Of a stretch of 64,000 nucleotides of DNA, positions 1-29,908 are shown piece after piece; the stretch's first letter is position 1; each line of letters starts with the position of its first letter. Under the pieces are notes generated by a model, which saw nothing but the letters and a program-made list of their open reading frames with translations, did not search any database and had not been told where the DNA came from. The stretch is taken from assembly GCF_054482595.1 (NCBI RefSeq), contig NZ_CM137008.1; one strand, 5' to 3'. A program made the position numbers and the translations under genes.

Positions 1-130
1 TCGGATGTTAGTCTCTTCTTTGCAGGGAGGCAAGACATGTGTATATCACTGTAATTCGATATTTATGAGCAGCATCGAAAAATAGCCCGCTGATATCATC
101 GATAATACTAAAAAAACAGGGAGGCTATTA

Positions 131-2797: not shown

Positions 2798-3211
2798 CTT
2801 CGGGAATGATTGGTATCAATGACGATAACAAGACCAATAACGGTTTATCCCTACTTAAGTAGGGAAGGTGCACAATGTACATCTTCTTTTAATTTCCCGG
2901 TATGAGATTTTATATTCGCAGTATGAATATTTTATGTAATAAAATTTATGGTAATTATTATAACTAAAAGTTTCTTTGATAATAAAACGAATAACTTGCA
3001 GATTTGAAATGCATGCATTATTGTCTTTAAACAATTCAACACATCTTAATATATGTATAGGTTAATTGTATTAAACCAATGAATATATTTTTGCAGTGAA
3101 TGTGATTATTGAATTAATTACGCCGTATTTTTTCTTTGTTTTTACCGATAACGGAAGTGTGCCGACGTATAGAAATGCAGGAGAAATGTCGGAGCATATG
3201 AAGGAGAACAA
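2798..3211. promoter_or_regulatory. AT-rich cas3-casA intergenic region; expected location of the cas operon promoter (H-NS/LeuO controlled in K-12); contains a 16-bp perfect palindrome at 2849-2864
   Basis: Position and AT-richness seen in sequence; promoter assignment by analogy to K-12, no motif mapped precisely. Confidence 0.45.
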
Positions 3212-4720
3212 ATGAATTTGCTTATTGATAACTGGATCCCTGTACGCCCGCGAAACGGGGGGAAAGTCCAAATCATAAATCTGCAATCGCTATACTGCAG
3301 TAGAGATCAGTGGCGATTAAGTTTGCCCCGTGACGATATGGAACTGGCCGCTTTAGCACTGCTGGTTTGCATTGGGCAAATTATCGACCCGGCAAAAGAT
3401 GACGTTGAATTTCGACATCGCATAATGAATCCGTTCACTGAAGATGGGTTTCAACAACTCATCGCGCCGTGGATAGATATGTTCTACCTTAATCACGCAG
3501 AACATCCCTTTATGCAGACCAAAGGTGTCAAAGCAAATGATGTGACTCCAATGGAAAAACTGTTGGCAGGGGTAAGCGGCGCGACGAATTGTGCTTTTGT
3601 CAATCAACCGGGTCAGGGTGAAGCATTATGTGGTGGATGCACTGCGATTGCGTTATTCAACCAGGCGAATCAGGCACCTGGTTTTGGTGGTGGCTTTAAA
3701 AGTGGTTTACGTGGAGGAACACCTATAACCACCTTCGTACGTGGGATCGATCTTCGCTCGACGGTGTTACTCAATGTCCTCACAATACCTCGTCTTCAAA
3801 AACAATTTCCCAATGAATCACATACGGAAAACCAACCTACCTGGGTTAAGCCTGTCAAACCCAATGAATCTGTGCCAGCTTCGTCAATTGGCTTTGTCCG
3901 CGGCTTATTCTGGCAACCAGCGCATATTGAATTATGCGACCCCATTGGGATTGGAAAATGTTCTTGCTGTGGGCAGGAAAGCAATTTGCGTTATACCGGT
4001 TTTCTTAAGGAAAAATTTACCTTTACAGTTAATGGGCTATGGCCCCATCCGCATTCCCCTTGTCTGGTAACAGTCAAGAAAGGGGAGGTTGAGGAAAAAT
4101 TTCTTGCTTTCACCACCTCCGCACCATCATGGACACAAATCAGCCGAGTTGTGGTAGATAAGATTATTCAAAATGAAAATGGAAATCGCGTGGCGGCGGT
4201 TGTGAATCAATTCAGAAATATTGCGCCGCAAAGTCCTCTTGAATTGATTATGGGGGGATATCGTAATAATCAAGCATCTATTCTTGAACGGCGTCATGAT
4301 GTGTTGATGTTTAATCAGGGGTGGCAACAATACGGCAATGTGATAAACGAAATAGTGACTGTTGGTTTGGGATATAAAACAGCCTTACGCAAGGCGTTAT
4401 ATACCTTTGCAGAAGGGTTTAAAAATAAAGACTTCAAAGGGGCCGGAGTTTCTGTTCATGAGACTGCAGAAAGGCATTTCTATCGACAGAGTGAATTATT
4501 AATTCCCGATGTACTGGCGAATATTAATTTTTCCCAGGCTGATGAGGTAATAGCTGATTTACGAGACAAACTTCATCAATTGTGTGAAATGCTATTTAAT
4601 CAATCTGTAGCTCCCTATGCACATCATCCTAAATTAATAAACACATTAGCGCTTGCCCGCGCCACGCTATACAAACATTTACGGGAGTTAAAACCGCAAG
4701 GAGGGCCATCAAATGGCTGA
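3212..4720 (+). CDS. casA: Cascade large subunit CasA/Cse1 (502 aa)
   Basis: ORF length and N-terminus MNLLIDNWIPVRPRNGGKVQIINL match E. coli CasA. Confidence 0.95.
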   Translation: MNLLIDNWIPVRPRNGGKVQIINLQSLYCSRDQWRLSLPRDDMELAALALLVCIGQIIDPAKDDVEFRHRIMNPFTEDGFQQLIAPWIDMFYLNHAEHPFMQTKGVKANDVTPMEKLLAGVSGATNCAFVNQPGQGEALCGGCTAIALFNQANQAPGFGGGFKSGLRGGTPITTFVRGIDLRSTVLLNVLTIPRLQKQFPNESHTENQPTWVKPVKPNESVPASSIGFVRGLFWQPAHIELCDPIGIGKCSCCGQESNLRYTGFLKEKFTFTVNGLWPHPHSPCLVTVKKGEVEEKFLAFTTSAPSWTQISRVVVDKIIQNENGNRVAAVVNQFRNIAPQSPLELIMGGYRNNQASILERRHDVLMFNQGWQQYGNVINEIVTVGLGYKTALRKALYTFAEGFKNKDFKGAGVSVHETAERHFYRQSELLIPDVLANINFSQADEVIADLRDKLHQLCEMLFNQSVAPYAHHPKLINTLALARATLYKHLRELKPQGGPSNG

Positions 4721-5195
4721 TGAAATTGATGCAATGGCTTTATATCGAGCCTGGCAACAACTGGATAATGGAGCATGTGCGCAAATTAGACGTGTTTCAG
4801 AACCTGATGAATTACGCGATATCCCTGCGTTTTATAGGCTGGTGCAACCTTTTGGTTGGGAAAACCCACGTCACCAGCAGGCTCTTTTGCGCATGGTGTT
4901 TTGCCTGAGCGCAGGAAAGAATGTCATCCGACATCAGGACAAAAAACCGGAGCAAACAACAGGTATCTCGTTGGGAAGAGCTTTAGCCAATAGTGGAAGA
5001 ATTAACGAGCGCCGTATCTTTCAATTAATTCGGGCTGACAGAACAGCCGATATGGTCCAGTTACGTCGATTACTTACTCACGCCGAACCCGTACTTGACT
5101 GGCCATTAATGGCCAGGATGTTGACCTGGTGGGGAAAGCGCGAACGCCAGCAACTTCTGGAAGATTTTGTATTGACCACAAACAAAAATGCGTAA
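4713..5195 (+). CDS. casB: Cascade small subunit CasB/Cse2 (160 aa)
   Basis: 160-aa ORF overlapping casA stop, operon position. Confidence 0.93.
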   Translation: MADEIDAMALYRAWQQLDNGACAQIRRVSEPDELRDIPAFYRLVQPFGWENPRHQQALLRMVFCLSAGKNVIRHQDKKPEQTTGISLGRALANSGRINERRIFQLIRADRTADMVQLRRLLTHAEPVLDWPLMARMLTWWGKRERQQLLEDFVLTTNKNA

Positions 5196-5207
5196 GGAAA
5201 CCTTTCT

Positions 5208-6299
5208 ATGTCTAACTTTATCAATATTCATGTTCTGATCTCTCACAGCCCTTCATGTCTGAACCGCGACGATATGAACATGCAGAAAGACGCTATTTTC
5301 GGCGGGAAAAGACGAGTAAGAATTTCAAGTCAAAGCCTTAAACGTGCGATGCGTAAAAGTGATTATTACGCACAAAATATTGGTGAATCCAGTCTCAGAA
5401 CAATTCATCTTGCACAATTACGTGATGTTCTTCGGCAAAAACTTGGTGAACGTTTTGACCAAAAAATCATCGATAAGACATTAGCGCTGCTCTCCGGTAA
5501 ATCAGTTGATGAAGCCGAAAAGATTTCTGCCGATGCGGTTACTCCCTGGGTTGTGGGAGAAATAGCCTGGTTCTGTGAGCAGGTTGCAAAAGCAGAGGCT
5601 GATAATCTGGATGATAAAAAGCTGCTCAAAGTTCTTAAGGAAGATATTGCCGCCATACGTGTGGATTTACAGCAGGGTGTTGATATTGCGCTTAGTGGAA
5701 GAATGGCAACCAGCGGCATGATGAGTGAGTTGGGAAAAGTTGATGGTGCAATGTCCATTGCGCATGCGATCACTACTCATCAGGTTGATTCTGATATTGA
5801 CTGGTTCACCGCTGTAGATGATTTACAGGAACAAGGTTCTGCACATCTGGGAACTCAGGAATTTTCATCGGGTGTTTTTTATCGTTATGCCAACATTAAC
5901 CTCGCTCAACTTCAGGAAAATTTAGGTGGTGCCTCCAGGGAGCAGGCTCTGGAAATTGCAACCCATGTTGTTCATATGCTGGCAACAGAGGTCCCTGGAG
6001 CAAAACAGCGTACTTATGCCGCTTTTAACCCTGCGGATATGGTAATGGTTAATTTCTCCGATATGCCACTTTCTATGGCAAATGCTTTTGAAAAAGCGGT
6101 TAAAGCGAAAGATGGCTTTTTGCAACCGTCTATACAGGCGTTTAATCAATATTGGGATCGCGTTGCCAATGGATATGGTCTGAACGGAGCTGCTGCGCAA
6201 TTCAGCTTATCTGATGTAGACCCAATTACTGCTCAAGTTAAACAAATGCCTACTTTAGAACAGTTAAAATCCTGGGTTCGTAATAATGGCGAGGCGTGA
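5208..6299 (+). CDS. casC: Cascade backbone subunit CasC/Cas7 (363 aa)
   Basis: 363-aa ORF, operon position. Confidence 0.95.
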
Positions 6300-6301
6300 A
6301 C

Positions 6302-6976
6302 ATGAGATCTTATTTGATCTTGCGGCTTGCTGGGCCAATGCAAGCCTGGGGGCAGCCGACCTTTGAAGGAACGCGACCTACCGGAAGATTTCCGACCCGA
6401 AGCGGGTTATTAGGGCTACTCGGGGCTTGTCTTGGGATCCAACGTGATGATACTTCTTCATTACAGGCGTTATCAGAGAGTGTGCAATTTGCAGTGCGCT
6501 GCGATGAACTCATTCTTGACGATCGTCGTGTGTCTGTAACGGGGTTGCGTGATTACCATACAGTCCTTGGAGCGCGAGAAGATTACCGTGGTTTGAAAAG
6601 TCATGAAACGATTCAAACATGGCGCGAATATTTATGTGATGCCTCCTTTACCGTCGCTCTCTGGTTAACACCCCATGCAACGATGGTTATCTCAGAACTT
6701 GAAAAAGCAGTATTAAAGCCTCGGTATACACCCTACCTGGGGCGGAGAAGTTGCCCACTAACACACCCGCTTTTTTTGGGGACATGTCAGGCATCGGATC
6801 CTCAGAAGGCGCTATTAAATTATGAGCCCGTTGGCGGCGATATATATAGTGAGGAATCAGTTACAGGGCATCATTTAAAATTTACGGCGCGCGACGAACC
6901 GATGATCACCTTACCTCGACAATTTGCTTCCCGAGAATGGTATGTGATTAAAGGAGGTATGGATGTATCTCAGTAA
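6302..6976 (+). CDS. casD: Cascade subunit CasD/Cas5 (224 aa from ATG at 6302)
   Basis: ORF 6296-6976; N-terminus MRSYLILRLAGPMQAWGQPTFEG from the ATG at 6302 matches CasD. Confidence 0.93.
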   Translation: MRSYLILRLAGPMQAWGQPTFEGTRPTGRFPTRSGLLGLLGACLGIQRDDTSSLQALSESVQFAVRCDELILDDRRVSVTGLRDYHTVLGAREDYRGLKSHETIQTWREYLCDASFTVALWLTPHATMVISELEKAVLKPRYTPYLGRRSCPLTHPLFLGTCQASDPQKALLNYEPVGGDIYSEESVTGHHLKFTARDEPMITLPRQFASREWYVIKGGMDVSQ

Positions 6977-7562
6977 AGTCATCATTGCCAGGGCCTGGAG
7001 CAGGGATCTTTACCAACTTCACCAGGGATTATGGCATTTATTTCCAAACAGACCGGATGCTGCTCGTGATTTTCTTTTTCATGTTGAGAAGCGAAACACA
7101 CCAGAAGGCTGTCATGTTTTATTGCAGTCAGCGCAAATGCCTGTTTCAACTGCCGTTGCGACAGTCATTAAAACTAAACAGGTTGAATTTCAACTTCAGG
7201 TTGGTGTTCCACTCTATTTTCGGCTTCGGGCAAATCCGATCAAAACTATTCTCGACAATCAAAAGCGCCTGGACAGTAAAGGGAATATTAAACGCTGTCG
7301 GGTTCCGTTAATAAAAGAAGCAGAACAAATCGCGTGGTTGCAACGTAAATTGGGCAATGCGGCGCGCGTTGAAGATGTGCATCCCATATCGGAACGGCCA
7401 CAGTATTTTTCTGGTGATGGTAAAAGTGGAAAGATCCAAACGGTTTGCTTTGAAGGTGTGCTCACCATCAACGACGCGCCAGCGTTAATAGATCTTGTAC
7501 AGCAAGGTATTGGGCCAGCTAAATCGATGGGATGTGGCTTGCTATCTTTGGCTCCACTGTGA
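6963..7562 (+). CDS. casE: CRISPR repeat endoribonuclease CasE/Cas6e (199 aa)
   Basis: 199-aa ORF, operon position. Confidence 0.95.
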   Translation: MYLSKVIIARAWSRDLYQLHQGLWHLFPNRPDAARDFLFHVEKRNTPEGCHVLLQSAQMPVSTAVATVIKTKQVEFQLQVGVPLYFRLRANPIKTILDNQKRLDSKGNIKRCRVPLIKEAEQIAWLQRKLGNAARVEDVHPISERPQYFSGDGKSGKIQTVCFEGVLTINDAPALIDLVQQGIGPAKSMGCGLLSLAPL

Positions 7563-7577
7563 TTGAGGTGTAATAAA

Positions 7578-8780
<1,203 letters not shown>

Positions 8781-8885
8781 AAACAAAGAATTAGCTGATC
8801 TTTAATAATAAGGAAATGTTACATTAAGGTTGGTGGGTTGTTTTTATGGGAAAAAATGCTTTCAGAACAAATGTATACTTTTAGA
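8781..8885 (+). promoter_or_regulatory. CRISPR leader, AT-rich, between cas2 and the first repeat
   Basis: AT-rich ~105 bp directly upstream of repeat 1; canonical repeats are leader-proximal. Confidence 0.7.
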
Positions 8886-9768
8886 GAGTTCCCCGCGCCA
8901 GCGGGGATAAACCGCATTTAATGCAAAACTAATTGCACAATAAATAGAGTTCCCCGCGCCAGCGGGGATAAACCGGCGATAAACCTCCTCATCGCTGATA
9001 TCAATAAGAGTTCCCCGCGCCAGCGGGGATAAACCGATAAAGGCTCGGCGGCGCAAAAAATGGCACGGGAGTTCCCCGCGCCAGCGGGGATAAACCGCTC
9101 TCGTTGTTGTGCCTCAGTACCGGTGCGCGGAGTTCCCCGCGCCAGCGGGGATAAACCGCACACCGGTGCGACGGGAAACGTTCAGCGGCCGAGTTCCCCG
9201 CGCCAGCGGGGATAAACCGGGAATAGTTAATTTCGGTGATGGCTGCGTAAAGAGTTCCCCGCGGCAGCGGGGATAAACCGAGTAATGCTGCGTTGAGATG
9301 ACCAGGCGGGCTGAGTTCCCCGCGGCAGCGGGGATAAACCGTTGACGCCAGCGGCGACCCGCGCCACGGGCTTGAGTTCCCCGCGCCAGCGGGGATAAAC
9401 CGTAGCCAGACGTACTCGCAATCTGTCGGCGGTCGAGTTCCCCGCGCCAGCGGGGATAAACCACCAGTTCTCCGTATTCTGTGGTTATCGTTGCTGAGTT
9501 CCCCGCGCCAGCGGGGATAAACCGGGAGTTCAGACATAGGTGGAATGATGGACTACGAGTTCCCCGCGTTAGCGGGGATAAACCGCCCGGTAGCCAGGTT
9601 TGCAACGCCTGAACCGAGAGTTCCCCGCGCCAGCAGGGATAAACCGGCAACGACGGTGAGATTTCACGCCTGACGCTGGTGTTCCCCGCGCCAGCGGGGA
9701 TAAACCGGGCGCACTGGATGCGATGATGGATATCACTGAGAATTCCCCGCCCCTGCGGTAGAACACCC
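8886..9768 (+). CRISPR. Type I-E CRISPR array: 15 repeats of 29 bp (GAGTTCCCCGCGCCAGCGGGGATAAACCG) and 14 spacers of 31-33 bp, period ~61 bp; terminal repeat at 9740-9768 is degenerate
   Basis: Repeat starts at 8886, 8947, 9007, 9069, 9130, 9191, 9252, 9313, 9374, 9435, 9496, 9557, 9618, 9679, 9740; variants in repeats 7, 8, 10, 12, 13, 14. Confidence 0.97.
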
Positions 9769-19855: not shown

Positions 19856-20848
19856 ATGAGTCAGAATACGCTGAAAGTTCATGATTTAAATGAAGATGCG
19901 GAATTTGATGAGAACGGAGTTGAGGTTTTTGACGAAAAGGCCTTAGTAGAAGAGGAACCCAGTGATAACGATTTGGCCGAAGAGGAACTGTTATCGCAGG
20001 GAGCCACACAGCGTGTGTTGGACGCGACTCAGCTTTACCTTGGTGAGATTGGTTATTCACCACTGTTAACGGCCGAAGAAGAAGTTTATTTTGCGCGTCG
20101 CGCACTGCGTGGAGATGTCGCCTCTCGCCGCCGGATGATCGAGAGTAACTTGCGTCTGGTGGTAAAAATTGCCCGCCGTTATGGCAATCGTGGTCTGGCG
20201 TTGCTGGACCTTATCGAAGAGGGCAACCTGGGGCTGATCCGCGCGGTAGAGAAGTTTGACCCGGAACGTGGTTTCCGCTTCTCAACATACGCAACCTGGT
20301 GGATTCGCCAGACGATTGAACGGGCGATTATGAACCAAACCCGTACTATTCGTTTGCCGATTCACATCGTAAAGGAGCTGAACGTTTACCTGCGAACCGC
20401 ACGTGAGTTGTCCCATAAGCTGGACCATGAACCAAGTGCGGAAGAGATCGCAGAGCAACTGGATAAGCCAGTTGATGACGTCAGCCGTATGCTTCGTCTT
20501 AACGAGCGCATTACCTCGGTAGACACCCCGCTGGGTGGTGATTCCGAAAAAGCGTTGCTGGACATCCTGGCCGATGAAAAAGAGAACGGTCCGGAAGATA
20601 CCACGCAAGATGACGATATGAAGCAGAGCATCGTCAAATGGCTGTTCGAGCTGAACGCCAAACAGCGTGAAGTACTGGCACGTCGATTCGGTTTGCTGGG
20701 GTACGAAGCGGCAACACTGGAAGATGTAGGTCGTGAAATTGGCCTCACCCGTGAACGTGTTCGCCAGATTCAGGTTGAAGGCCTGCGCCGTTTGCGCGAA
20801 ATCCTGCAAACGCAGGGGCTGAATATCGAAGCGCTGTTCCGCGAATAA
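19856..20848 (+). CDS. rpoS: RNA polymerase sigma S (330 aa), intact
   Basis: [24 protein letters not shown]... full-length with no internal stop. Confidence 0.97.
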
Positions 20849-20863
20849 GTAAGCATCTGTCAG

Positions 20864-20898
20864 AAAGGCCAGTCTCAAGCGAGGCTGGCCTTTTTCTT
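20864..20898 (+). terminator. Rho-independent terminator after rpoS
   Basis: GC hairpin GGCCAG...CTGGCC followed by TTTTTCTTTT. Confidence 0.8.
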
Positions 20899-20967
20899 TT
20901 GTTTGGGAAGCTTGTGTTTTTGTCGCCTGGATAAGACACGTCAGCGTCCTACCCGGCAATTTGCATC

Positions 20968-21375
20968 CTATGTGTTCATCATCTTGCGCACCAGCTGCAC
21001 AAACAGCTCCTGCTCTTCTGCACTCAAACGCCCCAAAAATTCCTCATCCACGCTGTCACCAATCGGTATCGCCGCAGCAAGTATCTTTTCTCCTTCGGCA
21101 GTCAGCCAGACAAAGCGACGCCGCTTGTCAGCGGCATCATGTTCACGTCTGACTAAGCCACGATTCTCCATTCTTGCCAACATTTCTGCCAACGTTGCTT
21201 TGGTGCTGACTGCTGCTTCTATCAGTGCCACCTGTTCGATACCAGGCTTATCAGCAATGGCGCGCATCACCGCATACTGTGGTTTGGTCAGGTCAGGTAA
21301 CTCGTGCTGCCAGCGAGCCGTGTGCTGCTGAAAAAGCTGTCGTAACTGATGGAACGCTTTATTTCGTAACGCCAT
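20968..21375 (-). CDS. hosA: MarR/SlyA-family transcriptional regulator (135 aa from MALRNK...)
   Basis: Winged-helix MarR-like sequence; divergent from the UbiX/UbiD cassette, as in the O157-type rpoS-mutS region. Confidence 0.8.
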   Translation of the reverse strand: MALRNKAFHQLRQLFQQHTARWQHELPDLTKPQYAVMRAIADKPGIEQVALIEAAVSTKATLAEMLARMENRGLVRREHDAADKRRRFVWLTAEGEKILAAAIPIGDSVDEEFLGRLSAEEQELFVQLVRKMMNT

Positions 21376-21521
21376 GTAAACTCCGGGCAAACTATCTGCC
21401 GCTATCATAGCGGTTTTTCAGTGACGAAGGGGATGTTGTTACTTTTCAGTGCTTGCCGCAATGAGAACAGAGGCGTATTTTAATAATAACGTTCGTATAC
21501 GAACAATTAAGAGAGTAAGCA

Positions 21522-22115
21522 ATGAAACTGATCGTCGGTATGACAGGGGCTACCGGTGCGCCTCTTGGTGTGGCATTACTGCAAGCGCTGCGGGAGATGC
21601 CGAATGTCGAGACTCATCTGGTGATGTCGAAGTGGGCGAAAACCACCATTGAACTGGAAACGCCTTACAGCGCCCGCGATGTTGCTGCCCTCGCTGACTT
21701 CAGCCATAACCCGGCGGATCAGGCGGCGACCATCTCCTCAGGTTCCTTTCGTACCGACGGCATGATCGTTATTCCGTGCAGTATGAAAACGCTCGCCGGT
21801 ATCCGCGCTGGTTACGCTGATGGCCTGGTAGGGCGCGCGGCGGACGTCGTGCTCAAAGAAGGCCGCAAACTGGTGCTGGTGCCGCGTGAAATGCCGCTTA
21901 GCACCATCCATCTCGAAAATATGCTCGCACTTTCACGCATGGGCGTGGCGATGGTGCCGCCGATGCCTGCCTTTTATAACCATCCCGAAACGGTAGATGA
22001 CATTGTCCACCATGTAGTAGCCCGCGTGCTGGATCAATTTGGCCTCGAACATCCCCACGCCAGGCGCTGGCAAGGATTGCCGCAGGTCCGGAATTTTTAT
22101 CAGGAGAATGAATAA
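21522..22115 (+). CDS. ecdB: UbiX-like flavin prenyltransferase, decarboxylase B subunit (197 aa)
   Basis: MKLIVGMTGATGAPLGVALLQAL... UbiX/Pad1 family. Confidence 0.88.
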   Translation: MKLIVGMTGATGAPLGVALLQALREMPNVETHLVMSKWAKTTIELETPYSARDVAALADFSHNPADQAATISSGSFRTDGMIVIPCSMKTLAGIRAGYADGLVGRAADVVLKEGRKLVLVPREMPLSTIHLENMLALSRMGVAMVPPMPAFYNHPETVDDIVHHVVARVLDQFGLEHPHARRWQGLPQVRNFYQENE

Positions 22116-23542
22116 TGGCATTTGATGATTTACGCAGCTTTTTACAGGCGCTTGATGACCACGGCCAGTTACTGAAAATCAGCGAAGAGGTGAACGCGGA
22201 ACCGGATCTGGCTGCCGCTGCCAACGCCACCGGGCGTATCGGCGATGGTGCACCGGCGCTGTGGTTTGATAATATTCGCGGTTTTACCGATGCCCGCGTG
22301 GCGATGAATACCATCGGTTCCTGGCAGAACCACGCGATTTCCCTGGGCCTGCCGCCAAACACCCCGGTTAAAAAACAGATTGATGAGTTTATCCGCCGCT
22401 GGGATAACTTCCCGATCGCCCCGGAGCGCCGCGCCAATCCAGCCTGGGCGCAGAACACCGTCGATGGTGACGAGATTAATCTGTTCGATATCCTGCCGCT
22501 GTTTCGTTTAAACGACGGTGATGGCGGTTTCTATCTCGACAAAGCGTGCGTGGTTTCCCGCGATCCGCTCGACCCGGATAACTTCGGCAAGCAGAACGTC
22601 GGCATCTACCGCATGGAAGTGAAGGGCAAGCGTAAGCTCGGCCTGCAACCGGTGCCGATGCACGATATCGCCCTGCATCTGCATAAAGCAGAAGAGCGCG
22701 GTGAAGATCTACCTATTGCGATCACGCTCGGTAACGATCCGATCATCACGCTGATGGGCGCAACGCCACTGAAATACGATCAGTCTGAGTATGAAATGGC
22801 AGGCGCGCTGCGTGAAAGCCCGTACCCGATCGCCACCGCCCCGCTGACCGGTTTTGATGTGCCGTGGGGTTCAGAAGTGATCCTCGAAGGGGTCATCGAA
22901 AGCCGTAAACGCGAAATTGAAGGGCCGTTCGGTGAGTTTACCGGACACTACTCCGGCGGGCGTAACATGACCGTGGTGCGCATCGATAAAGTCTCTTACC
23001 GCACCAGGCCGATTTTCGAATCGCTGTACCTCGGCATGCCGTGGACCGAAATCGACTACCTGATGGGGCCAGCCACCTGTGTGCCGCTGTATCAGCAACT
23101 TAAAGCCGAGTTCCCGGAAGTACAGGCGGTGAACGCCATGTACACCCACGGCCTGCTGGCGATTATCTCCACCAAAAAACGCTACGGCGGCTTTGCCCGC
23201 GCGGTGGGCCTGCGTGCGATGACCACGCCGCACGGTCTGGGCTACGTAAAGATGGTGATTATGGTCGATGAAGACGTTGACCCGTTCAACCTGCCGCAGG
23301 TGATGTGGGCGCTCTCCTCGAAAGTAAATCCGGCAGGGGATTTGGTGCAGTTGCCGAATATGTCCGTGCTGGAACTCGACCCTGGCTCAAGCCCGGCGGG
23401 GATCACCGACAAGCTGATTATCGACGCCACCACGCCTGTCGCCCCGGACAACCGTGGTCACTACAGCCAGCCGGTGGTGGATTTGCCGGAAACCAAAGCC
23501 TGGGCTGAAAAACTGACCGCTATGCTGGCCGCACGTAAATAA
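22115..23542 (+). CDS. ecdC: UbiD-family (hydroxy)aromatic acid decarboxylase, C subunit (475 aa)
   Basis: 475-aa UbiD-like ORF translationally coupled to the UbiX-like gene. Confidence 0.88.
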   Translation: MAFDDLRSFLQALDDHGQLLKISEEVNAEPDLAAAANATGRIGDGAPALWFDNIRGFTDARVAMNTIGSWQNHAISLGLPPNTPVKKQIDEFIRRWDNFPIAPERRANPAWAQNTVDGDEINLFDILPLFRLNDGDGGFYLDKACVVSRDPLDPDNFGKQNVGIYRMEVKGKRKLGLQPVPMHDIALHLHKAEERGEDLPIAITLGNDPIITLMGATPLKYDQSEYEMAGALRESPYPIATAPLTGFDVPWGSEVILEGVIESRKREIEGPFGEFTGHYSGGRNMTVVRIDKVSYRTRPIFESLYLGMPWTEIDYLMGPATCVPLYQQLKAEFPEVQAVNAMYTHGLLAIISTKKRYGGFARAVGLRAMTTPHGLGYVKMVIMVDEDVDPFNLPQVMWALSSKVNPAGDLVQLPNMSVLELDPGSSPAGITDKLIIDATTPVAPDNRGHYSQPVVDLPETKAWAEKLTAMLAARK

Positions 23543-23552
23543 GGAGAACAAG

Positions 23553-23789
23553 ATGATTTGTCCACGTTGTGCCGATGAACAGATTGAAGTGATGGCGAAA
23601 TCGCCGGTGAAAGATGTCTGGACGGTATATCAGTGCCAGCATTGCCTTTATACCTGGCGCGATACCGAACCGCTGCGCCGTACCAGCCGCGAACATTATC
23701 CCGAAGCGTTCCGCATGACGCAGAAAGATATTGATGACGCGCCAATGGTGCCGAGCATCCCGCCGCTGCTGGCGGAAGGTAAGCGCTAA
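23553..23789 (+). CDS. ecdD: Small D subunit of the UbiD/UbiX-type decarboxylase (78 aa), Cys-rich
   Basis: 78-aa ORF with CPRC...CQHC motifs directly downstream of the UbiD-like gene. Confidence 0.75.
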   Translation: MICPRCADEQIEVMAKSPVKDVWTVYQCQHCLYTWRDTEPLRRTSREHYPEAFRMTQKDIDDAPMVPSIPPLLAEGKR

Positions 23790-23797
23790 TAAAAAGT

Positions 23798-23825
23798 GCC
23801 GGGTAGTGGCTTTGCTTTACCCGGC
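23798..23825. terminator. Hairpin between convergent ecdD and pphB, probably a terminator
   Basis: GCCGGGTAG...CTACCCGGC inverted repeat flanked by A/T runs. Confidence 0.55.
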
Positions 23826-23829
23826 CTCA

Positions 23830-24486
23830 TTACTTTATTTTATAAAATGACAGCCGCCCGCTTTTCGGCGATCCGGTATCAATATAAATCTGGTTAGCGA
23901 ACGTCTGAATGTTATCAAACATCATATGTCCAAATATAAAATAATCAGCGCCGTTTATTTGTTGTAACTCGCCATTAAGCGATTTCTGCACACGATCAAC
24001 AGGCCAGAGTAATTCGCTCTCCGCTATTTCTTTACCAAAGAGATATTCACTCCCCGGATAATCTGCATGTGCGATGACATATTTTATGTTGTCGTTAGTG
24101 ATTTCAATAATATGTGGAAGGTGATGGAATTTCAGCAACAGATCTGTAGCTTCTTTTTGCTCTGAATCATTTAAATCGAAAAACCAGTCACCACCGCTGG
24201 CAAGCCACATATTGCCATCGCCGGTCGCGAACGCATCCAGCGCCATTGCTTCGTGGTTGCCTTTAACGGAGATAAACCAGGGCTGGTTTAGCAGGCGCAG
24301 GACGTTAAGACTCTCCGGCCCACGATCAATATTATCGCCGACAGAAATAAGTAAGTCGGTTTCGGGGAAAAAAGAGAGTTGATGTAAGCGGGATTGTAAT
24401 AACTGATATTCACCATGAATATCACCAACGACCCATATATGGCGATAGTGATGGGCATTGATTTTTTGATAGCGTGTAGATGGCAT
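23830..24486 (-). CDS. pphB: Serine/threonine protein phosphatase 2 (218 aa)
   Basis: 218-aa ORF with metallophosphatase motifs (GDIHG, GDNIDRG, GNHE). Confidence 0.92.
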   Translation of the reverse strand: MPSTRYQKINAHHYRHIWVVGDIHGEYQLLQSRLHQLSFFPETDLLISVGDNIDRGPESLNVLRLLNQPWFISVKGNHEAMALDAFATGDGNMWLASGGDWFFDLNDSEQKEATDLLLKFHHLPHIIEITNDNIKYVIAHADYPGSEYLFGKEIAESELLWPVDRVQKSLNGELQQINGADYFIFGHMMFDNIQTFANQIYIDTGSPKSGRLSFYKIK

Positions 24487-24591: not shown

Positions 24592-27153
24592 TTACACCAG
24601 ACTCTTCAGGCGATAAATCCATTCCAGCGCCTGACGCGGGGTGAGTGAATCCGGATCGAGGTTTTCCAGTGCCTCGACCGCAGGCGAGGTTTCTTCCGGT
24701 ACGGACAGCAAAGACATTTGTGTACCATCCACTTGCGTAGCGGCGGCGTTCGGCGAAATGCTTTCCAGCTCACGCAGTTTTTGCCGTGCGCGCTTAATCA
24801 CCTCTTTTGGCACGCCCGCCAGAGCTGCAACCGCCAGGCCGTAGCTTTTGCTCGCCGCGCCATCCTGCACGCTATGCATAAAGGCAATGGTGTCGCCGTG
24901 CTCCAGTGCATCGAGATGCACGTTGGCGACGCCTTCCATTTTCTCCGGTAACTGGGTCAGCTCGAAATAGTGGGTAGCAAACAGCGTCAATGCCTTAATC
25001 TTATTCGCCAGATTTTCCGCGCACGCCCATGCCAGTGACAGACCATCGTAAGTGGACGTTCCACGCCCGATCTCATCCATTAACACCAGACTGTATTCGG
25101 TGGCGTTATGTAAAATATTGGCGGTTTCAGTCATCTCCACCATAAAGGTTGAGCGCCCGGAAGCCAGGTCATCTGCCGCGCCTACGCGGGTAAAGATGCG
25201 ATCGATAGGTCCAATCTCGACTTTTTGTGCCGGTACATAGCTGCCGATGTAGGCCATCAGCGCAATCAGTGCGGTCTGGCGCATATAGGTACTTTTACCG
25301 CCCATGTTCGGGCCGGTAATAATCAACATCCGGCGCTGCGGTGACAGATTCAGCGGGTTGGCGATAAATGGCTCGTTCAGCACCTGTTCAACCACCGGAT
25401 GGCGGCCTTCGGTAATGCGAATGCCCGGTTTATCAATAAAGGTCGGGCAGGTGTAGTTCAGGGTATAGGCCCGTTCCGCCAGGTTCACCAGCACGTCGAG
25501 TTCCGCCAGCGCGCTCGCGCTCTGTTGCAACGCTTCCAGATGCGGCAACAGCAGGTCGAACAACTCTTCATAAAGCTGTTTTTCCAGTGCCAGTGCTTTG
25601 CCTTTTGAAGTGAGGACTTTGTCTTCGTACTCTTTCAGCTCTGGAATAATGTAACGCTCGGCGTTTTTCAGCGTCTGGCGACGCATGTAGTTGATGGGTG
25701 CCAGATGGCTTTGTCCACGGCTGATTTGAATGTAGTAGCCGTGCACCGCATTAAAGCCAACTTTCAGCGTGTCCAGGCCGGTACGTTCACGCTCGCGGAC
25801 TTCCAGACGCTCCAGATAATCGGTCGCGCCGTCAGCCAGCGCACGCCACTCATCCAGCTCTTCGTTATAGCCCGATGCGATAACACCACCGTCGCGTACC
25901 AGCACCGGCGGTGTGTCGATGATTGCTCGCTCCAGCAGATCGCGCAGCTCGGCAAACTCGCCCATCTTCTCACGCAGCGCCTGTACCGGTGCACTATCGA
26001 CAGTTTCTAACTGCGCACGCAGCTCCGGCAGTTGCTGGAAAGCGTGGCGCATACGGGCCAGATCGCGTGGGCGAGCAGTTCGTAAAGCCAGACGTGCCAG
26101 AATACGTTCCAGGTCGCCGACCTGACGCAGTACCGGCTGTAGCCCGGCGGTGAAATCCTGCAATGCGCCAATAGTTTGCTGGCGCTCAAGCAACACGCGG
26201 GTATCGCGCACTGGCATATGCAGCCAGCGTTTCAGCATACGGCTGCCCATCGGCGTGACGGTGCAGTCGAGCACAGAAGCCAGCGTATTTTCCGCACCAC
26301 CCGCCAGGTTCTGGGTGATTTCCAGATTACGACGCGTCGCGGCATCCATAATGATGCTGTCCTGCTCACGTTCCATGGTGATGGAACGAATATGCGGCAG
26401 AGTCGTACGTTGGGTATCTTTCGCATACTGCAACAGACAACCGGCAGCACAAAGTCCGCGCGGCGCGTTCTCGACGCCAAAACCGACCAGATCGCGGGTG
26501 CCAAATTGCAGATTCAACTGCTGGCGCGCGGTGTCGATTTCAAACTCCCACAGCGGGCGACGGCGCAGGCCGCGACGGCCTTCAATCAGCGACATCTCGG
26601 CGAAATCTTCTGCATACAGCAGTTCCGCCGGATTAGTGCGTTGCAATTCTGCCGCCATCGTTTCGCGGTCGGCCGGTTCGCTAAGGCGAAAACGCCCGGA
26701 ACTGATATCCAGCGTCGCGTAGCCGAAACCTTTGCTGTCCTGCCAGATAGCCGCCAGCAGGTTGTCCTGACGCTCCTGCAACAGGGCTTCATCGCTGATG
26801 GTGCCTGGCGTAACGATACGCACAACTTTGCGCTCAACCGGACCTTTGCTGGTCGCCGGATCGCCAATTTGTTCGCAGATGGCAACGGACTCGCCCTGAT
26901 TCACCAGTTTGGCGAGGTAGTTTTCCACCGCATGGTAGGGGATCCCCGCCATCGGGATCGGCTCTCCCGCTGAAGCACCTCGTTTGGTCAGTGAAATATC
27001 CAGCAGTTGCGACGCGCGTTTTGCGTCGTCATAAAACAGTTCATAAAAATCACCCATCCGGTAAAACAGCAGGATCTCGGGATGCTGGGCTTTCAGCTTG
27101 AGATACTGCTGCATCATGGGCGTATGGGCGTCGAAATTTTCTATTGCACTCAT
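24592..27153 (-). CDS. mutS: DNA mismatch repair protein MutS (853 aa), intact
   Basis: 853-aa [29 protein letters not shown]..., Walker [10 protein letters not shown]. Confidence 0.97.
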
Positions 27154-27439
27154 GGGGTTATGTCCGGTTCCCTGATATTAAATGGGGTGTGATGGTTTTT
27201 ATTTTCGTTGTAATCACATAAGGCGCACATGATACCGGAGTTAATCATTTCAGGGGAAGAAGCGAACGGCGAGTTCTTGATGCTGGTTCCGGGAAAGATG
27301 CTGTTTTGCAGCTTTTGCGTGATGCTTATGAAGCAAGTACGCAAAATTGTATCGGTTGGCGAACCCTTCTTCTTTAGAGTCATAGTGCCCTTTAAGATTA
27401 AGTTGTAATATAAATGCATCTTAATGAGGTGGAGGCATC

Positions 27440-27829: not shown

Positions 27830-29908
27830 TTAAATCAATGCCGATTTATCAATTCCCAGTCGCTTCATCCGTGACAGCAGGGTCGTGCGTTTCAGCCCCA
27901 GACGTTGCGCAGCGCCTTTAGGCCCGGCAACCACGCCGTTAGTTTCTTTCAGCACGCGAACAATCAACTGATATTCATCTTCGCCCTCCTGAGCGACAAC
28001 CGTTGCGGCAGGCGGCGTTTCAGGCTCCGGTAAAGCAATATCTGGCAATGACAGCTGCAGCACGTTGCCGCGTGTTAGCAATACCGCGCGCTCAATGACG
28101 TTTTCCAGTTCGCGTACGTTACCCGGCCACTCCATATTGCTCAAGGTGCGCAACGTCTCGGCAGGAATGCTGTCGATATTGCGCCCCAGACGACGGGCAA
28201 TTTTGAAGGTAAAGGCTTTCGCCAGCAGCGGAATATCTTCCGGACGCTCGCGTAGTGGCGGAAGGTGAATCGGGAATACGTTCAGGCGGTAATAGAGATC
28301 GCTACGGAACTCACGGTCGGCGACCATTTTTTTCAGATCGCGGTTAGTCGCGGCGATTAGACGCACGTCCGTCTGAATGATTTTGTTGCTGCCGAGGCGT
28401 TCAAACTCCTGTTCCTGCAATACACGCAGCAACTTCGGCTGTAACTCCAGTGGCATATCGCCCACTTCGTCGAGGAACAGGGAGCTTTTATCCGCCAGTT
28501 CAAAACGACCGATACGCTGGGCGCTGGCACCGGTAAAAGCCCCACGCTCATGACCAAACAGATCGCTCTCCAGCAATCCGGCAGGCATCGCCGCGCAGTT
28601 CATTTTGACCATGCGGCGATTATTACGCCCACTGAGATTATGGATAGCACGGGCAATCAGCTCTTTACCCGTGCCAGTTTCACCGAGGATCAGCACGGTA
28701 CTGTCACTTTGCGCCACCATTTCAACTTGTTTAAGCACGCTGTACATGGCTTCGCTGCGGCCAATAATCTCGCCAAATTCACTATCAACATTGTTGAGCT
28801 GCTCGGTCAGGGCGAGGTTTTCATCAACCAGCCGTTCTTTCAGACGATGGATTTCCTGATAGGCGAGGGCGTTATCGACAGCGATTGCCACACGTTCGGC
28901 AATCTGGCGCAGTAAATTCAGATTGGTAGTGGTAAACACTTTCTCTTCACATTGCGCCAGTTTCAGCACGCCCAGCATGGTGTCGCCAGACATCAGCGGT
29001 AACAGGCACAAGGTTTGAATCTGGTTGCCCCAGGTATCGAACAACATGCGTTCATACGGGGCTAAATCATCCCGCTCGTGGAGATTAATCAGCAGCATCT
29101 CTTTACTTTTGAACACGCGTTCGGTGAGGGTTCCGGCTTCATCGACTTCGCTCTGTTCGTGGGCGGGATGCTGTTTATCAAGATAGTGAGTGGAGTAGAT
29201 GTTGAGTTTGTTTTTACGGTGGCTGCGTAAGACGATACTGATATCGTCAATATCGAAATAGTAATGGATTTCTTTGGCGACTTCGCTGACCAGTTCGTCC
29301 ATATCCAGGCGGGAAAGCACCGCGTTGGTGATGGCGACCAGGATGCGGAAGTTATCGCGTTCCCGGCATAACAACTCATAGTCGACATTGTTAACGACGC
29401 GGCTCTGGATTTGTTCGGTGACGACAGAAACGATCTGCGTAAATGTTTGCAGACGATTGAACTCTTTTTCGCTCCAGGGGCGATCGTCATAACGAATAAA
29501 TTCACAGCCACCAAAAATATGCCCTTCCGCCGCCAGTGGCATCAGGCAATAGTGACCAAATTTGGGGTATAGCCCACCTGCGGCCAGCTGCGGCCAGGTT
29601 TCACAAAATTCTTCGTAACTGCAATGCAGCGTATCAGGGCGCGACAAAATGCTGCGTACCGGACCGTGTGCCAGAACAGTTTCGTCTTCATATTTAATGG
29701 GGGTGTCTTTTTCACGCGATGCGTAATAAGACGCACGTTGAGTCTGCGCTTGCCACAACACAATAGCCGCGTTGTCGGCGAGCGCAGAACGCTTTACCAG
29801 TTGCGAAAGAGCCTCACACAGCGAGGCCAGATCGGGCTGCTGCAATAGTGTCCGAGTGATGTCGAACAACCCTTGCTGTCCGAGATCACTCATCGGTGTA
29901 TATGACAT
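27830..29908 (-). CDS. fhlA: Formate hydrogenlyase transcriptional activator, sigma54-dependent (692 aa from MSYTPMSDLG)
   Basis: GAF domains, AAA+ sigma54-activator domain ([14 protein letters not shown]) and C-terminal HTH. Confidence 0.95.
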   Translation of the reverse strand: MSYTPMSDLGQQGLFDITRTLLQQPDLASLCEALSQLVKRSALADNAAIVLWQAQTQRASYYASREKDTPIKYEDETVLAHGPVRSILSRPDTLHCSYEEFCETWPQLAAGGLYPKFGHYCLMPLAAEGHIFGGCEFIRYDDRPWSEKEFNRLQTFTQIVSVVTEQIQSRVVNNVDYELLCRERDNFRILVAITNAVLSRLDMDELVSEVAKEIHYYFDIDDISIVLRSHRKNKLNIYSTHYLDKQHPAHEQSEVDEAGTLTERVFKSKEMLLINLHERDDLAPYERMLFDTWGNQIQTLCLLPLMSGDTMLGVLKLAQCEEKVFTTTNLNLLRQIAERVAIAVDNALAYQEIHRLKERLVDENLALTEQLNNVDSEFGEIIGRSEAMYSVLKQVEMVAQSDSTVLILGETGTGKELIARAIHNLSGRNNRRMVKMNCAAMPAGLLESDLFGHERGAFTGASAQRIGRFELADKSSLFLDEVGDMPLELQPKLLRVLQEQEFERLGSNKIIQTDVRLIAATNRDLKKMVADREFRSDLYYRLNVFPIHLPPLRERPEDIPLLAKAFTFKIARRLGRNIDSIPAETLRTLSNMEWPGNVRELENVIERAVLLTRGNVLQLSLPDIALPEPETPPAATVVAQEGEDEYQLIVRVLKETNGVVAGPKGAAQRLGLKRTTLLSRMKRLGIDKSALI

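Follow-up and report, generated by a model that had tools for sequence, protein, structure and literature searches.

The window, by which we mean the whole 64-kb stretch of DNA analyzed here, contains a hosA regulator gene and a divergent ecdBCD operon within the known rpoS-mutS polymorphic site, where a preliminary description had placed them. The open reading frames match that description exactly in gene identity, strand, and coordinates (20968-23789), and the translational coupling it proposed for ecdBCD is also borne out: the ecdB stop and ecdC start codons share a single base (TAATG), AGGAG lies 8 nt upstream, and 10 nt separate ecdC from ecdD, whose ATG is preceded by AAGGAG. By these distances the three genes form a contiguous B-C-D operon. 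Homology to K-12 ends at 20894 and restarts at 23831, and neither this alignment nor the open reading frames reveal ygbI-N between the rpoS terminator and pphB, in agreement with the preliminary description. A K-12-like background was rejected because the flanks, at approximately 98% identity to K-12, are nearer to O157:H7; the earlier assignment to a non-K-12 strain with an O157:H7-like arrangement stands. Coordinates of all features are collected in Table 1.

Table 1. Genes and sequence features of the rpoS-mutS site in the window, with the basis for each assignment.
Feature	Position	Strand	Basis
rpoS, left boundary gene	19856..20848	+	ORF; annotated rpoS in identical Santai record
rpoS intrinsic terminator hairpin	20862..20895	+	terminator scan; fold -24.5 kcal/mol, z = -5.8
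REP-like imperfect palindrome (GCCTGGATAAGAC...CCTACCCGGC) between rpoS terminator and hosA stop	20925..20957	.	read from sequence
hosA, MarR-family repressor, 135 aa	20968..21375	-	Pfam MarR; PDB 8AGA; RefSeq annotated start
Candidate hosA promoter -10 hexamer TATGAT	21404..21409	-	block TATCATAG conserved, 18 genera or strains aligned
Candidate ecdB promoter: -35 TTGCCG (21453-21458), 17-nt spacer, -10 TATTTT (21476-21481)	21453..21481	+	
HosA operator, perfect 14-bp palindrome GTTCGTATACGAAC	21491..21504	.	published site; 17 nt upstream of ecdB ATG
ecdB (pad1), UbiX-type flavin prenyltransferase making prFMN, 197 aa	21522..22115	+	NCBIfam VdcB; PDB 1SBZ
ecdC (yclC), UbiD-family decarboxylase, catalytic subunit, 475 aa	22115..23542	+	NCBIfam VdcC; PDB 7AE4 chain A
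ecdD, zinc-ribbon activator subunit, 78 aa	23553..23789	+	NCBIfam VdcD; ShdD (PDB 7AE4 chain a)
Hairpin between convergent ecdD and pphB	23795..23827	.	folds -18.4 and -19.9 kcal/mol, z = -3.2 and -3.9
pphB, right boundary gene	23830..24486	-	NCBIfam PRK09968 473 bits, cut-off 332; K-12 alignment
mutS	24592..27153	-	ORF

The hairpin beyond ecdD is followed by a U-run on the minus strand, which makes it terminator-like for pphB. Strain M10 carries an element related to the REP-like palindrome at the same location. Scanning the whole window against Rfam at gathering thresholds gave no matches; the window also holds a CRISPR array, which was seen by repeat search and missed by Tandem Repeats Finder.

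HosA has a winged-helix MarR domain (Pfam MarR, 45.4 bits; cut-off 24.6) and is identical at 133 of 135 residues to the crystallized “Transcriptional regulator HosA” from EPEC (PDB 8AGA), the differences being two conservative substitutions, V98I and M126V. An upstream ATG at 21408 would lengthen the annotated protein to 146 aa. The gene had been called “MarR/SlyA-type”; the MarR part of that label holds, and the SlyA part does not, as the SlyA orthologue model NF002926 gives 30 bits (cut-off 120).

All three ecd products fall in the Vdc families, and the search for UbiX and UbiD signatures that had been set beforehand found them: the Pfam domains agree with the NCBIfam Vdc matches, which all pass their cut-offs. 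EcdB matches Pfam Flavoprotein/UbiX and NCBIfam VdcB (NF041206; 312.3 bits, cut-off 290) and aligns over its full length of 197 residues with Pad1 of E. coli O157:H7 (PDB 1SBZ, E = 3.7e-128). EcdC contains the Pfam domains UbiD_N, UbiD, and UbiD_C, matches VdcC (NF041204; 790.5 bits, cut-off 650) and PDB 7AE4 chain A (E = 2e-160), and carries the R...E-x4-E catalytic motif and the metal and prenylated FMN (prFMN) ligands in the segments NVGIYR (161), SEYE (224), and EGPFGE (269), segments that could be aligned to both ShVdcC and UbiD of E. coli. We take these motifs to correspond to R173, E277, and E282 of Fdc1. UbiD proper, the 4-hydroxy-3-polyprenylbenzoate decarboxylase, was rejected as an identity for EcdC (NF008175, 173.7 bits against an equivalog cut-off of 788). 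EcdD matches VdcD (NF041205; 121.2 bits, cut-off 30) and ShdD, and its cysteines at positions 3, 6, 28, and 31 form two CXXC knuckles that coincide with the zinc ligand positions of ShVdcD (ligands from PMC8379154). The earlier “78-aa Cys-rich” wording is right in length; with four cysteines, the protein is better termed a zinc ribbon than Cys-rich.

With VdcBCD, BsdBCD, KpdBCD, and ShdBCD, the locus shares the B-C-D operon, prFMN chemistry, and the ERE motif, and the VdcBCD-type D subunit is a zinc ribbon with cysteines at positions identical to those of EcdD. The 7AE4 structure comes from a Gram-positive anaerobe, whereas the E. coli enzyme has no solved CD structure. UbiD and UbiX of E. coli, which act in ubiquinone biosynthesis, belong to the same two superfamilies as EcdC and EcdB and use the same cofactor, but EcdBCD differs from them in having a soluble substrate that is not polyprenylated, in needing a D subunit, and in being a regulated operon.

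The 14-bp palindrome ahead of ecdB is the sole match to its sequence at two or fewer mismatches in the 64-kb window and, together with its flanks, is the same as the HosA oligonucleotide in Table S1 of PMC6261655; an exact search detected it and an inverted-repeat finder missed it. HosA of E. coli UMN026 binds this palindrome and is released from it by 4-hydroxybenzoate, with a KD of 4.7 uM (PMC6261655), and the operator sequences of the UMN026 and EPEC proteins (PDB 8AGA and others) are identical to that of the window. Work summarized in a preprint (10.1101/2024.04.24.590444) has HosA repressing the ecd operon from a site downstream of the transcription start, with induction by 4-HBA. In the candidate ecdB promoter, the TTG in the -35 hexamer and the TA...T in the -10 hexamer do not vary among the 18 sequences of a cross-genus alignment. 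This promoter scores 8/12, below threshold, and a consensus promoter scan of the hosA-ecdB intergenic region returned none at threshold; the putative hosA -10 hexamer likewise is proposed from sequence conservation.

Conservation of this control region extends well beyond E. coli. In other Enterobacterales, some 75 of 80 loci retain the GTTCG-N4-CGAAC operator core; a second, upstream HosA site is found in other genera and is degenerate in E. coli. The hosA-operator-ecd order is kept in the same proportion of loci, drawn from many nonpathogenic genera, and the palindrome there always adjoins the first ecd gene, which argues against HosA being chiefly a global regulator of motility or virulence with ecdBCD as an incidental neighbor. 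We think such a role very unlikely to be the main one, even though motility effects in EPEC are announced in the title of Ferrandiz 2005 (as cited in PMC5491219) and the site has served to mark pathotypes (PMC4209514). Those motility effects do suggest that HosA could have targets beyond the ecd operon.

The cassette is intact and under strong purifying selection. The comparison with public genomes called for earlier showed a 2931-bp stretch to be 100% identical, with the same annotation, in 14 E. coli chromosomes. O157:H16 Santai was rejected as the source of the window, given a divergence of about 0.9% in the cas region and a 9-bp indel in fhlA. The nearest described counterpart is the O157:H7 “2.9-kb” slyA(hosA)-pad1-yclC segment (pattern I, PMC4209514), which has the same genes, order, and both junctions; ecdD and the pphB junction are 100% identical, and nucleotide divergence over the cassette is approximately 1.3%, mostly in a synonymous ecdC patch at 22501-23000. 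Amino-acid differences number one in HosA and three in EcdB, and the EcdC proteins are identical despite 26 synonymous differences (0 non-synonymous). Across three alleles examined closely, EcdC shows 0-1 amino-acid changes against 26-62 synonymous ones (pN/pS from about 0 to 0.006); its identity is 89-99% across Enterobacterales and 96-97% to the Klebsiella and Enterobacter proteins.

Because EcdC is the most conserved part and has so few amino-acid changes, it is the selected function of the operon. This pattern weighs against a main role in back-up prFMN supply, in which EcdB would take the place of UbiX during ubiquinone synthesis, leaving EcdCD secondary or idle. EcdB does clear the cut-offs of the general UbiX subfamily by a wide margin (257 and 246 bits), and E. 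coli UbiD already requires prFMN. In addition, ecdB is missing from 12 of 80 related loci, which must depend on the housekeeping UbiX and so show that the two prenyltransferases are interchangeable. Control of the operon by 4-hydroxybenzoate rather than by quinone status nevertheless also speaks against this role, and we judge it highly improbable.

We are instead quite confident that the region is a HosA-controlled, substrate-inducible aromatic-acid decarboxylase module. The present analysis showed the gene content, the protein families, which operator is present and how well it is conserved, purifying selection, the frequencies in the population, and synteny, and the behavior of HosA with DNA and ligand, the VdcCD mechanism, and the substrate come from literature on near-identical or homologous proteins; from these we infer the promoter hexamers, the activity of the window's allele, and its physiological role. 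A HosA dimer on the operator, between the ecdB promoter and start codon, would block transcription until 4-hydroxybenzoate bound to HosA and took it off the DNA. EcdB would then supply prFMN to EcdC, probably a hexamer, which would convert 4-hydroxybenzoate reversibly to phenol and CO2 and probably decarboxylate vanillate as well, with the EcdD zinc ribbon clamped on EcdC and holding the catalytic Glu-Arg-Glu loops in position. Given that the enzyme class is oxygen-sensitive, the anaerobic gut would be the most likely setting for the pathway.

The proposed substrate, 4-hydroxybenzoate, is suggested by the 96-97% identical homologues and by the identity of the inducer. In Klebsiella, kpdBCD turns 4-hydroxybenzoate into phenol (Lupa 2005, cited in PMC6424909), and with the HosA ligand (PMC6261655) this makes the earlier statement that substrate and role are poorly defined out of date. 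The literature examined contained no kinetics for E. coli EcdCD, and co-expression of a D subunit had inconsistent effects with AroY, a different UbiD enzyme (PMC5779730).

Four patterns of the rpoS-mutS site are known (PMC4209514), and the window has pattern I (O157:H7-type): hosA-ecdBCD lies beside rpoS, ygbN (o454) is absent, and ecdD is directly beside pphB. It is not pattern III (B2-type), which has MBL-fold hydrolase and flavodoxin genes (c3302-c3304) between ygbN and rpoS. CFT073 has an MBL-fold hydrolase, a flavodoxin, and ygbI-N downstream of rpoS, with no hosA or ecdBCD, and this region shares none of the cassette; PMC4209514 reports the MBL-fold hydrolase/flavodoxin pattern as exclusive to B2 and slyA/hosA as confined to the O157 and EPEC patterns. 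The description “O157/B2-type” is therefore correct for O157 and wrong for B2.

A survey of 5426 complete E. coli genomes found hosA-ecdBCD and ygbI-N side by side (the long form) in 1602 and hosA-ecdBCD without ygbI-N (the short form, as in the window and O157:H7) in 804 (approximately 15%), with about 3000 lacking hosA-ecdBCD; ygbI-N is present in 4603, and the exact allele of the window in 14. Although ygbI-N is absent here, as had been stated, the 1602 genomes with both show that the two are not alternative cassettes, which “rather than ygbI-N” had implied.

The long form lacks any equivalent of the short-form junction of ecdD, hairpin, and pphB (~40 bp). Homologous junctions occur in divergent short-form lineages of E. 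coli as well as in Escherichia sp. E1V33 and two Pseudocitrobacter genomes; in Citrobacter werkmanii only the hairpin occurs after ecdD. Because the junction recurs beyond E. coli, in other Escherichia and in Pseudocitrobacter, the short form looks old and not like the product of a recent deletion. The order nlpD-rpoS-hosA-ecdBCD-mutS is common to many Enterobacteriaceae genera, ygbI-N is missing between ecdD and mutS in most of the other genera, and ecdC nucleotide identity is 93-94% between Escherichia and Pseudocitrobacter and approximately 86% to Citrobacter, Klebsiella, and Salmonella. In our judgment there is an even chance that the junction predates E. coli diversification, that ygbI-N entered or replaced it later, and that ecdC-ecdD-pphB moved between Escherichia and Pseudocitrobacter.

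Herbelin et al. in 2000 are said to have held that the short form arose by recent deletion of ygbI-N. Such a deletion from the long form within E. coli would fit the twofold greater frequency of the long form and the presence of ygbI homologues close to the cassette in Salmonella arizonae and diarizonae. The junction sequence, however, is not one that a new deletion would regenerate, and both the spread of that junction across lineages and genera and the lack of ygbI-N in most other genera count against a recent deletion, which we consider somewhat unlikely. An old short form, if true, would revise the published history of the site and contradict the claim in the preprint 10.1101/2024.04.24.590444 that hosA was acquired from Shigella.

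As a locus, hosA-ecdBCD beside rpoS is ordinary and already described. The cross-genus gene order and the sharing of the ecdD-hairpin-pphB junction with other Escherichia and Pseudocitrobacter go slightly past the literature examined, and the new question is limited to a modest revision of how the site evolved. The HosA/operator pair is already in use as a 4-hydroxybenzoate biosensor, and the cassette without ygbI-N conveniently marks strain background. For the organism, the prediction is that 4-hydroxybenzoate of dietary or tyrosine origin is turned anaerobically into phenol, which PMC6424909 and PMC8745165 describe as a gut-derived uremic toxin.

The hosA-ecdBCD cassette at the rpoS-mutS site is real and already known, a textbook polymorphism with characterised parts. 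Its genes and flanks are listed in the table; the ORF list and RefSeq annotation agree exactly with the layout in the preliminary description, which had placed a regulator and a divergent decarboxylase cassette at 20968-23789 and whose naming was mostly right. ecdB and ecdC share one base (TAATG), a 10-nt gap separates ecdC from ecdD, and each of the latter two is preceded by a Shine-Dalgarno sequence of its own.

Positions of hosA-ecdBCD and flanking features
Feature	Position	Strand	Remarks
rpoS	19856-20848		left flank
rpoS terminator	20862-20895
hosA	20968-21375	minus	RefSeq annotation, 135 aa; ORF list gives 20968-21408
ecdB	21522-22115	plus	ORF list, 197 aa
ecdC	22115-23542	plus	ORF list, 475 aa
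ecdD	23553-23789	plus	ORF list, 78 aa
pphB	23830-24486	minus	right flank
mutS	24592-27153	minus	right flank

The proposed UbiX/UbiD signatures are present: Pfam assigns the 197-aa protein to Flavoprotein (UbiX fold) and three UbiD domains to the 475-aa protein, and all three enzyme subunits exceed curated NCBIfam cut-offs for VdcB (EcdB, 312 bits; cut-off 290), VdcC (EcdC, 790; 650), and VdcD (EcdD, 121; 30). The regulator, described as MarR/SlyA-type, is MarR by Pfam and was not recognised by the NCBIfam SlyA model; models for UbiD proper and BagM/BagN likewise gave no assignment. EcdC retains the motifs NVGIYR, SEYE, and EGPFGE, which from Fdc1 and UbiD we take to hold the ligands for metal and prFMN together with the catalytic Glu-Arg-Glu residues. 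EcdB matches O157:H7 Pad1 over its full length (PDB 1SBZ; E = 3.7e-128), EcdC matches Sedimentibacter VdcC (PDB 7AE4; E = 2e-160), EcdD matches ShdD of the same complex (7AE4; E = 3e-11), and 133 of 135 HosA residues match PDB 8AGA. The EcdD cysteines, 3, 6, 28, and 31, are exactly the zinc-ligand positions of ShVdcD (PMC8379154).

Between the window and O157:H7, ecdC has 26 synonymous and 0 non-synonymous differences (pS 0.08), and between the window and strain M10, 55 and 1 (pS 0.16); EcdC identity across Enterobacterales is 89-99%. ecdC is intact and under strong constraint. Of the differences from O157:H7, 21 of 26, every one synonymous, fall within 500 bp (22501-23000), which looks like a small recombination patch. 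Proteins 89-91% identical to E. coli EcdC also occur in a contig labelled Martelella alba from an alphaproteobacterial assembly (L073) and in Vibrio salinus (L080), presumably through either contamination or long-range transfer.

A perfect palindrome, GTTCGTATACGAAC (21491-21504), lies in the intergenic region 17 nt upstream of the ecdB ATG, has no other match at <=2 mismatches anywhere in the 64-kb window, and is contained with identical flanks in the HosA oligonucleotide of Table S1 of PMC6261655. HosA has a 14-bp site and is freed from DNA by 4-hydroxybenzoate (KD 4.7 uM; PMC6261655). As summarised from primary work in 10.1101/2024.04.24.590444, HosA represses the decarboxylase operon and hosA itself, the operon inducer is 4-hydroxybenzoate, and the HosA site is downstream of the transcription start. 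About 75 of 80 loci from other Enterobacterales have GTTCG-N4-CGAAC beside their first ecd gene; most of the remainder are truncated upstream. An 18-sequence alignment is invariant at TTG (21453-21455), at TA...T (21476-21481, with a 17-nt spacer to the -35 hexamer), and in the operator half-sites, which fits a putative sigma-70 promoter for ecdB with its transcription start just upstream of the operator; a consensus promoter scan did not call this promoter. The conserved stretch TATCATAG (~21403-21410), TATGAT when read on the minus strand, is a candidate -10 element of hosA; if it is one, the 135-aa HosA start would be favoured. In many genera, another HosA-like site, GATCGTRTACGAAC, precedes the main operator by ~57 nt (e.g. 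L018 7320, L026 7324, L037 7320); of this second site, the ACGAAG half alone is left in E. coli (~21420-21433).

The best-supported reading of the module is a 4-hydroxybenzoate-inducible, HosA-gated, oxygen-sensitive prFMN decarboxylase making phenol, with literature support (PMC8379154, PMC6424909). That the module is a spare UbiX, or that HosA is mainly a motility regulator, is much less likely, as which parts are conserved weighs against both. ecdB is missing from 12 of the 80 loci (L007-L086), hosA directly adjoining ecdC (e.g. L043, L055, L056, L065, L067, L070; further L076, L078, L081, L085, L086), in Rahnella, Erwinia, Chimaeribacter, Cedecea, Pluralibacter, and others, which would imply dependence on housekeeping UbiX.

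The K-12 order is rpoS / ygbN...ygbI / pphB, and homology between K-12 and the window ends at 20894 and restarts at 23831. O157:H7 has the window's arrangement; M10 carries both modules (rpoS / hosA ecdBCD / ygbN...ygbI / pphB); and the B2 strain CFT073 has rpoS / flavodoxin, MBL hydrolase / ygbN...ygbI / pphB, without the cassette. These O157:H7, K-12, CFT073, and M10 arrangements are patterns I to IV, respectively, of PMC4209514, which links B2 to pattern III and restricts slyA/hosA to patterns I and IV. Across 5426 complete E. coli genomes, the cassette is present in 2417 and ygbI-N in 4603; ecdD is directly beside pphB (short form) in 804 and directly beside ygbN (long form) in 1602. Together, these results contradict the earlier label of B2-type content; ygbI-N is indeed absent from the window by K-12 alignment, but the two cassettes are not mutually exclusive.

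Several variants were seen around the site. The matched segment of E. coli O158:H23 CFIAFB20140388 is annotated as ecdD / hypothetical protein / MarR regulator, pointing to an internal ecdB-ecdC deletion. In strain 10035776-3, pphB and mutS are separated by a TPR-protein gene (L087 5213-6076), and in WB61, ygbA and fhlA are separated by a TOBE-domain gene (L088 8524-8952). In the window, a 59-aa ORF between mutS and ygbA (27229-27408) is annotated in the O157:H16 strain Santai as hypothetical protein WP_000611933.1 and, in a shorter version, in O157:H7. fhlA (27830-29908) is intact; Santai fhlA, with a 9-bp insertion at window position 28743, is annotated as a pseudogene with an internal stop. 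A Type I-E CRISPR array (8886-9768; ~15 repeats of 29 nt, 61-nt period) adjoins a cas operon (~1-8800) whose region shares ~95.6% identity with K-12 and 99.1% with Santai.

The order nlpD-rpoS-hosA-ecdBCD-...-mutS is also found in Citrobacter, Klebsiella, Enterobacter, Kluyvera, Leclercia, Atlantibacter, Kosakonia, Franconibacter, Mangrovibacter, and Pseudocitrobacter; the cassette is inverted, ecdD toward rpoS, in Salmonella diarizonae/arizonae (L023, L025) and Phytobacter (L020, L049, L051). A ygbI homologue adjoins hosA in these Salmonella loci. Since the order recurs across genera, we consider the cassette ancestral at the site on synteny. Acquisition of hosA from Shigella has been proposed (10.1101/2024.04.24.590444); the recurring order argues against a Shigella origin of the cassette.

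The 40-bp ecdD-pphB spacer of the short form folds as a hairpin (23795-23827). This hairpin is missing from the long form, and the spacer has homologues in WB61 and 10035776-3, which are divergent E. coli of the short form, in Escherichia sp. E1V33, and in two Pseudocitrobacter genomes; in Citrobacter werkmanii, the hairpin alone is kept after ecdD. Herbelin (2000) reportedly saw the short form as a deletion product. The distribution of the spacer argues against a fresh deletion and for an old short junction whose place ygbI-N took. Part of the sharing with Pseudocitrobacter may be intergeneric exchange: ecdC there (L009, L010) has 93-94% nucleotide identity to its E. coli counterparts, a level like that among the E. 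coli alleles themselves (P. vendiensis vs. the window, 93.5%; Citrobacter/Klebsiella/Salmonella, ~86%), but HosA identity is only 76-77% (P. vendiensis, 76%), which suggests that the ecdC-ecdD-pphB stretch (22115-24486) was exchanged between genera. The junction and synteny evidence offers a possible, modest revision of the history of this site.
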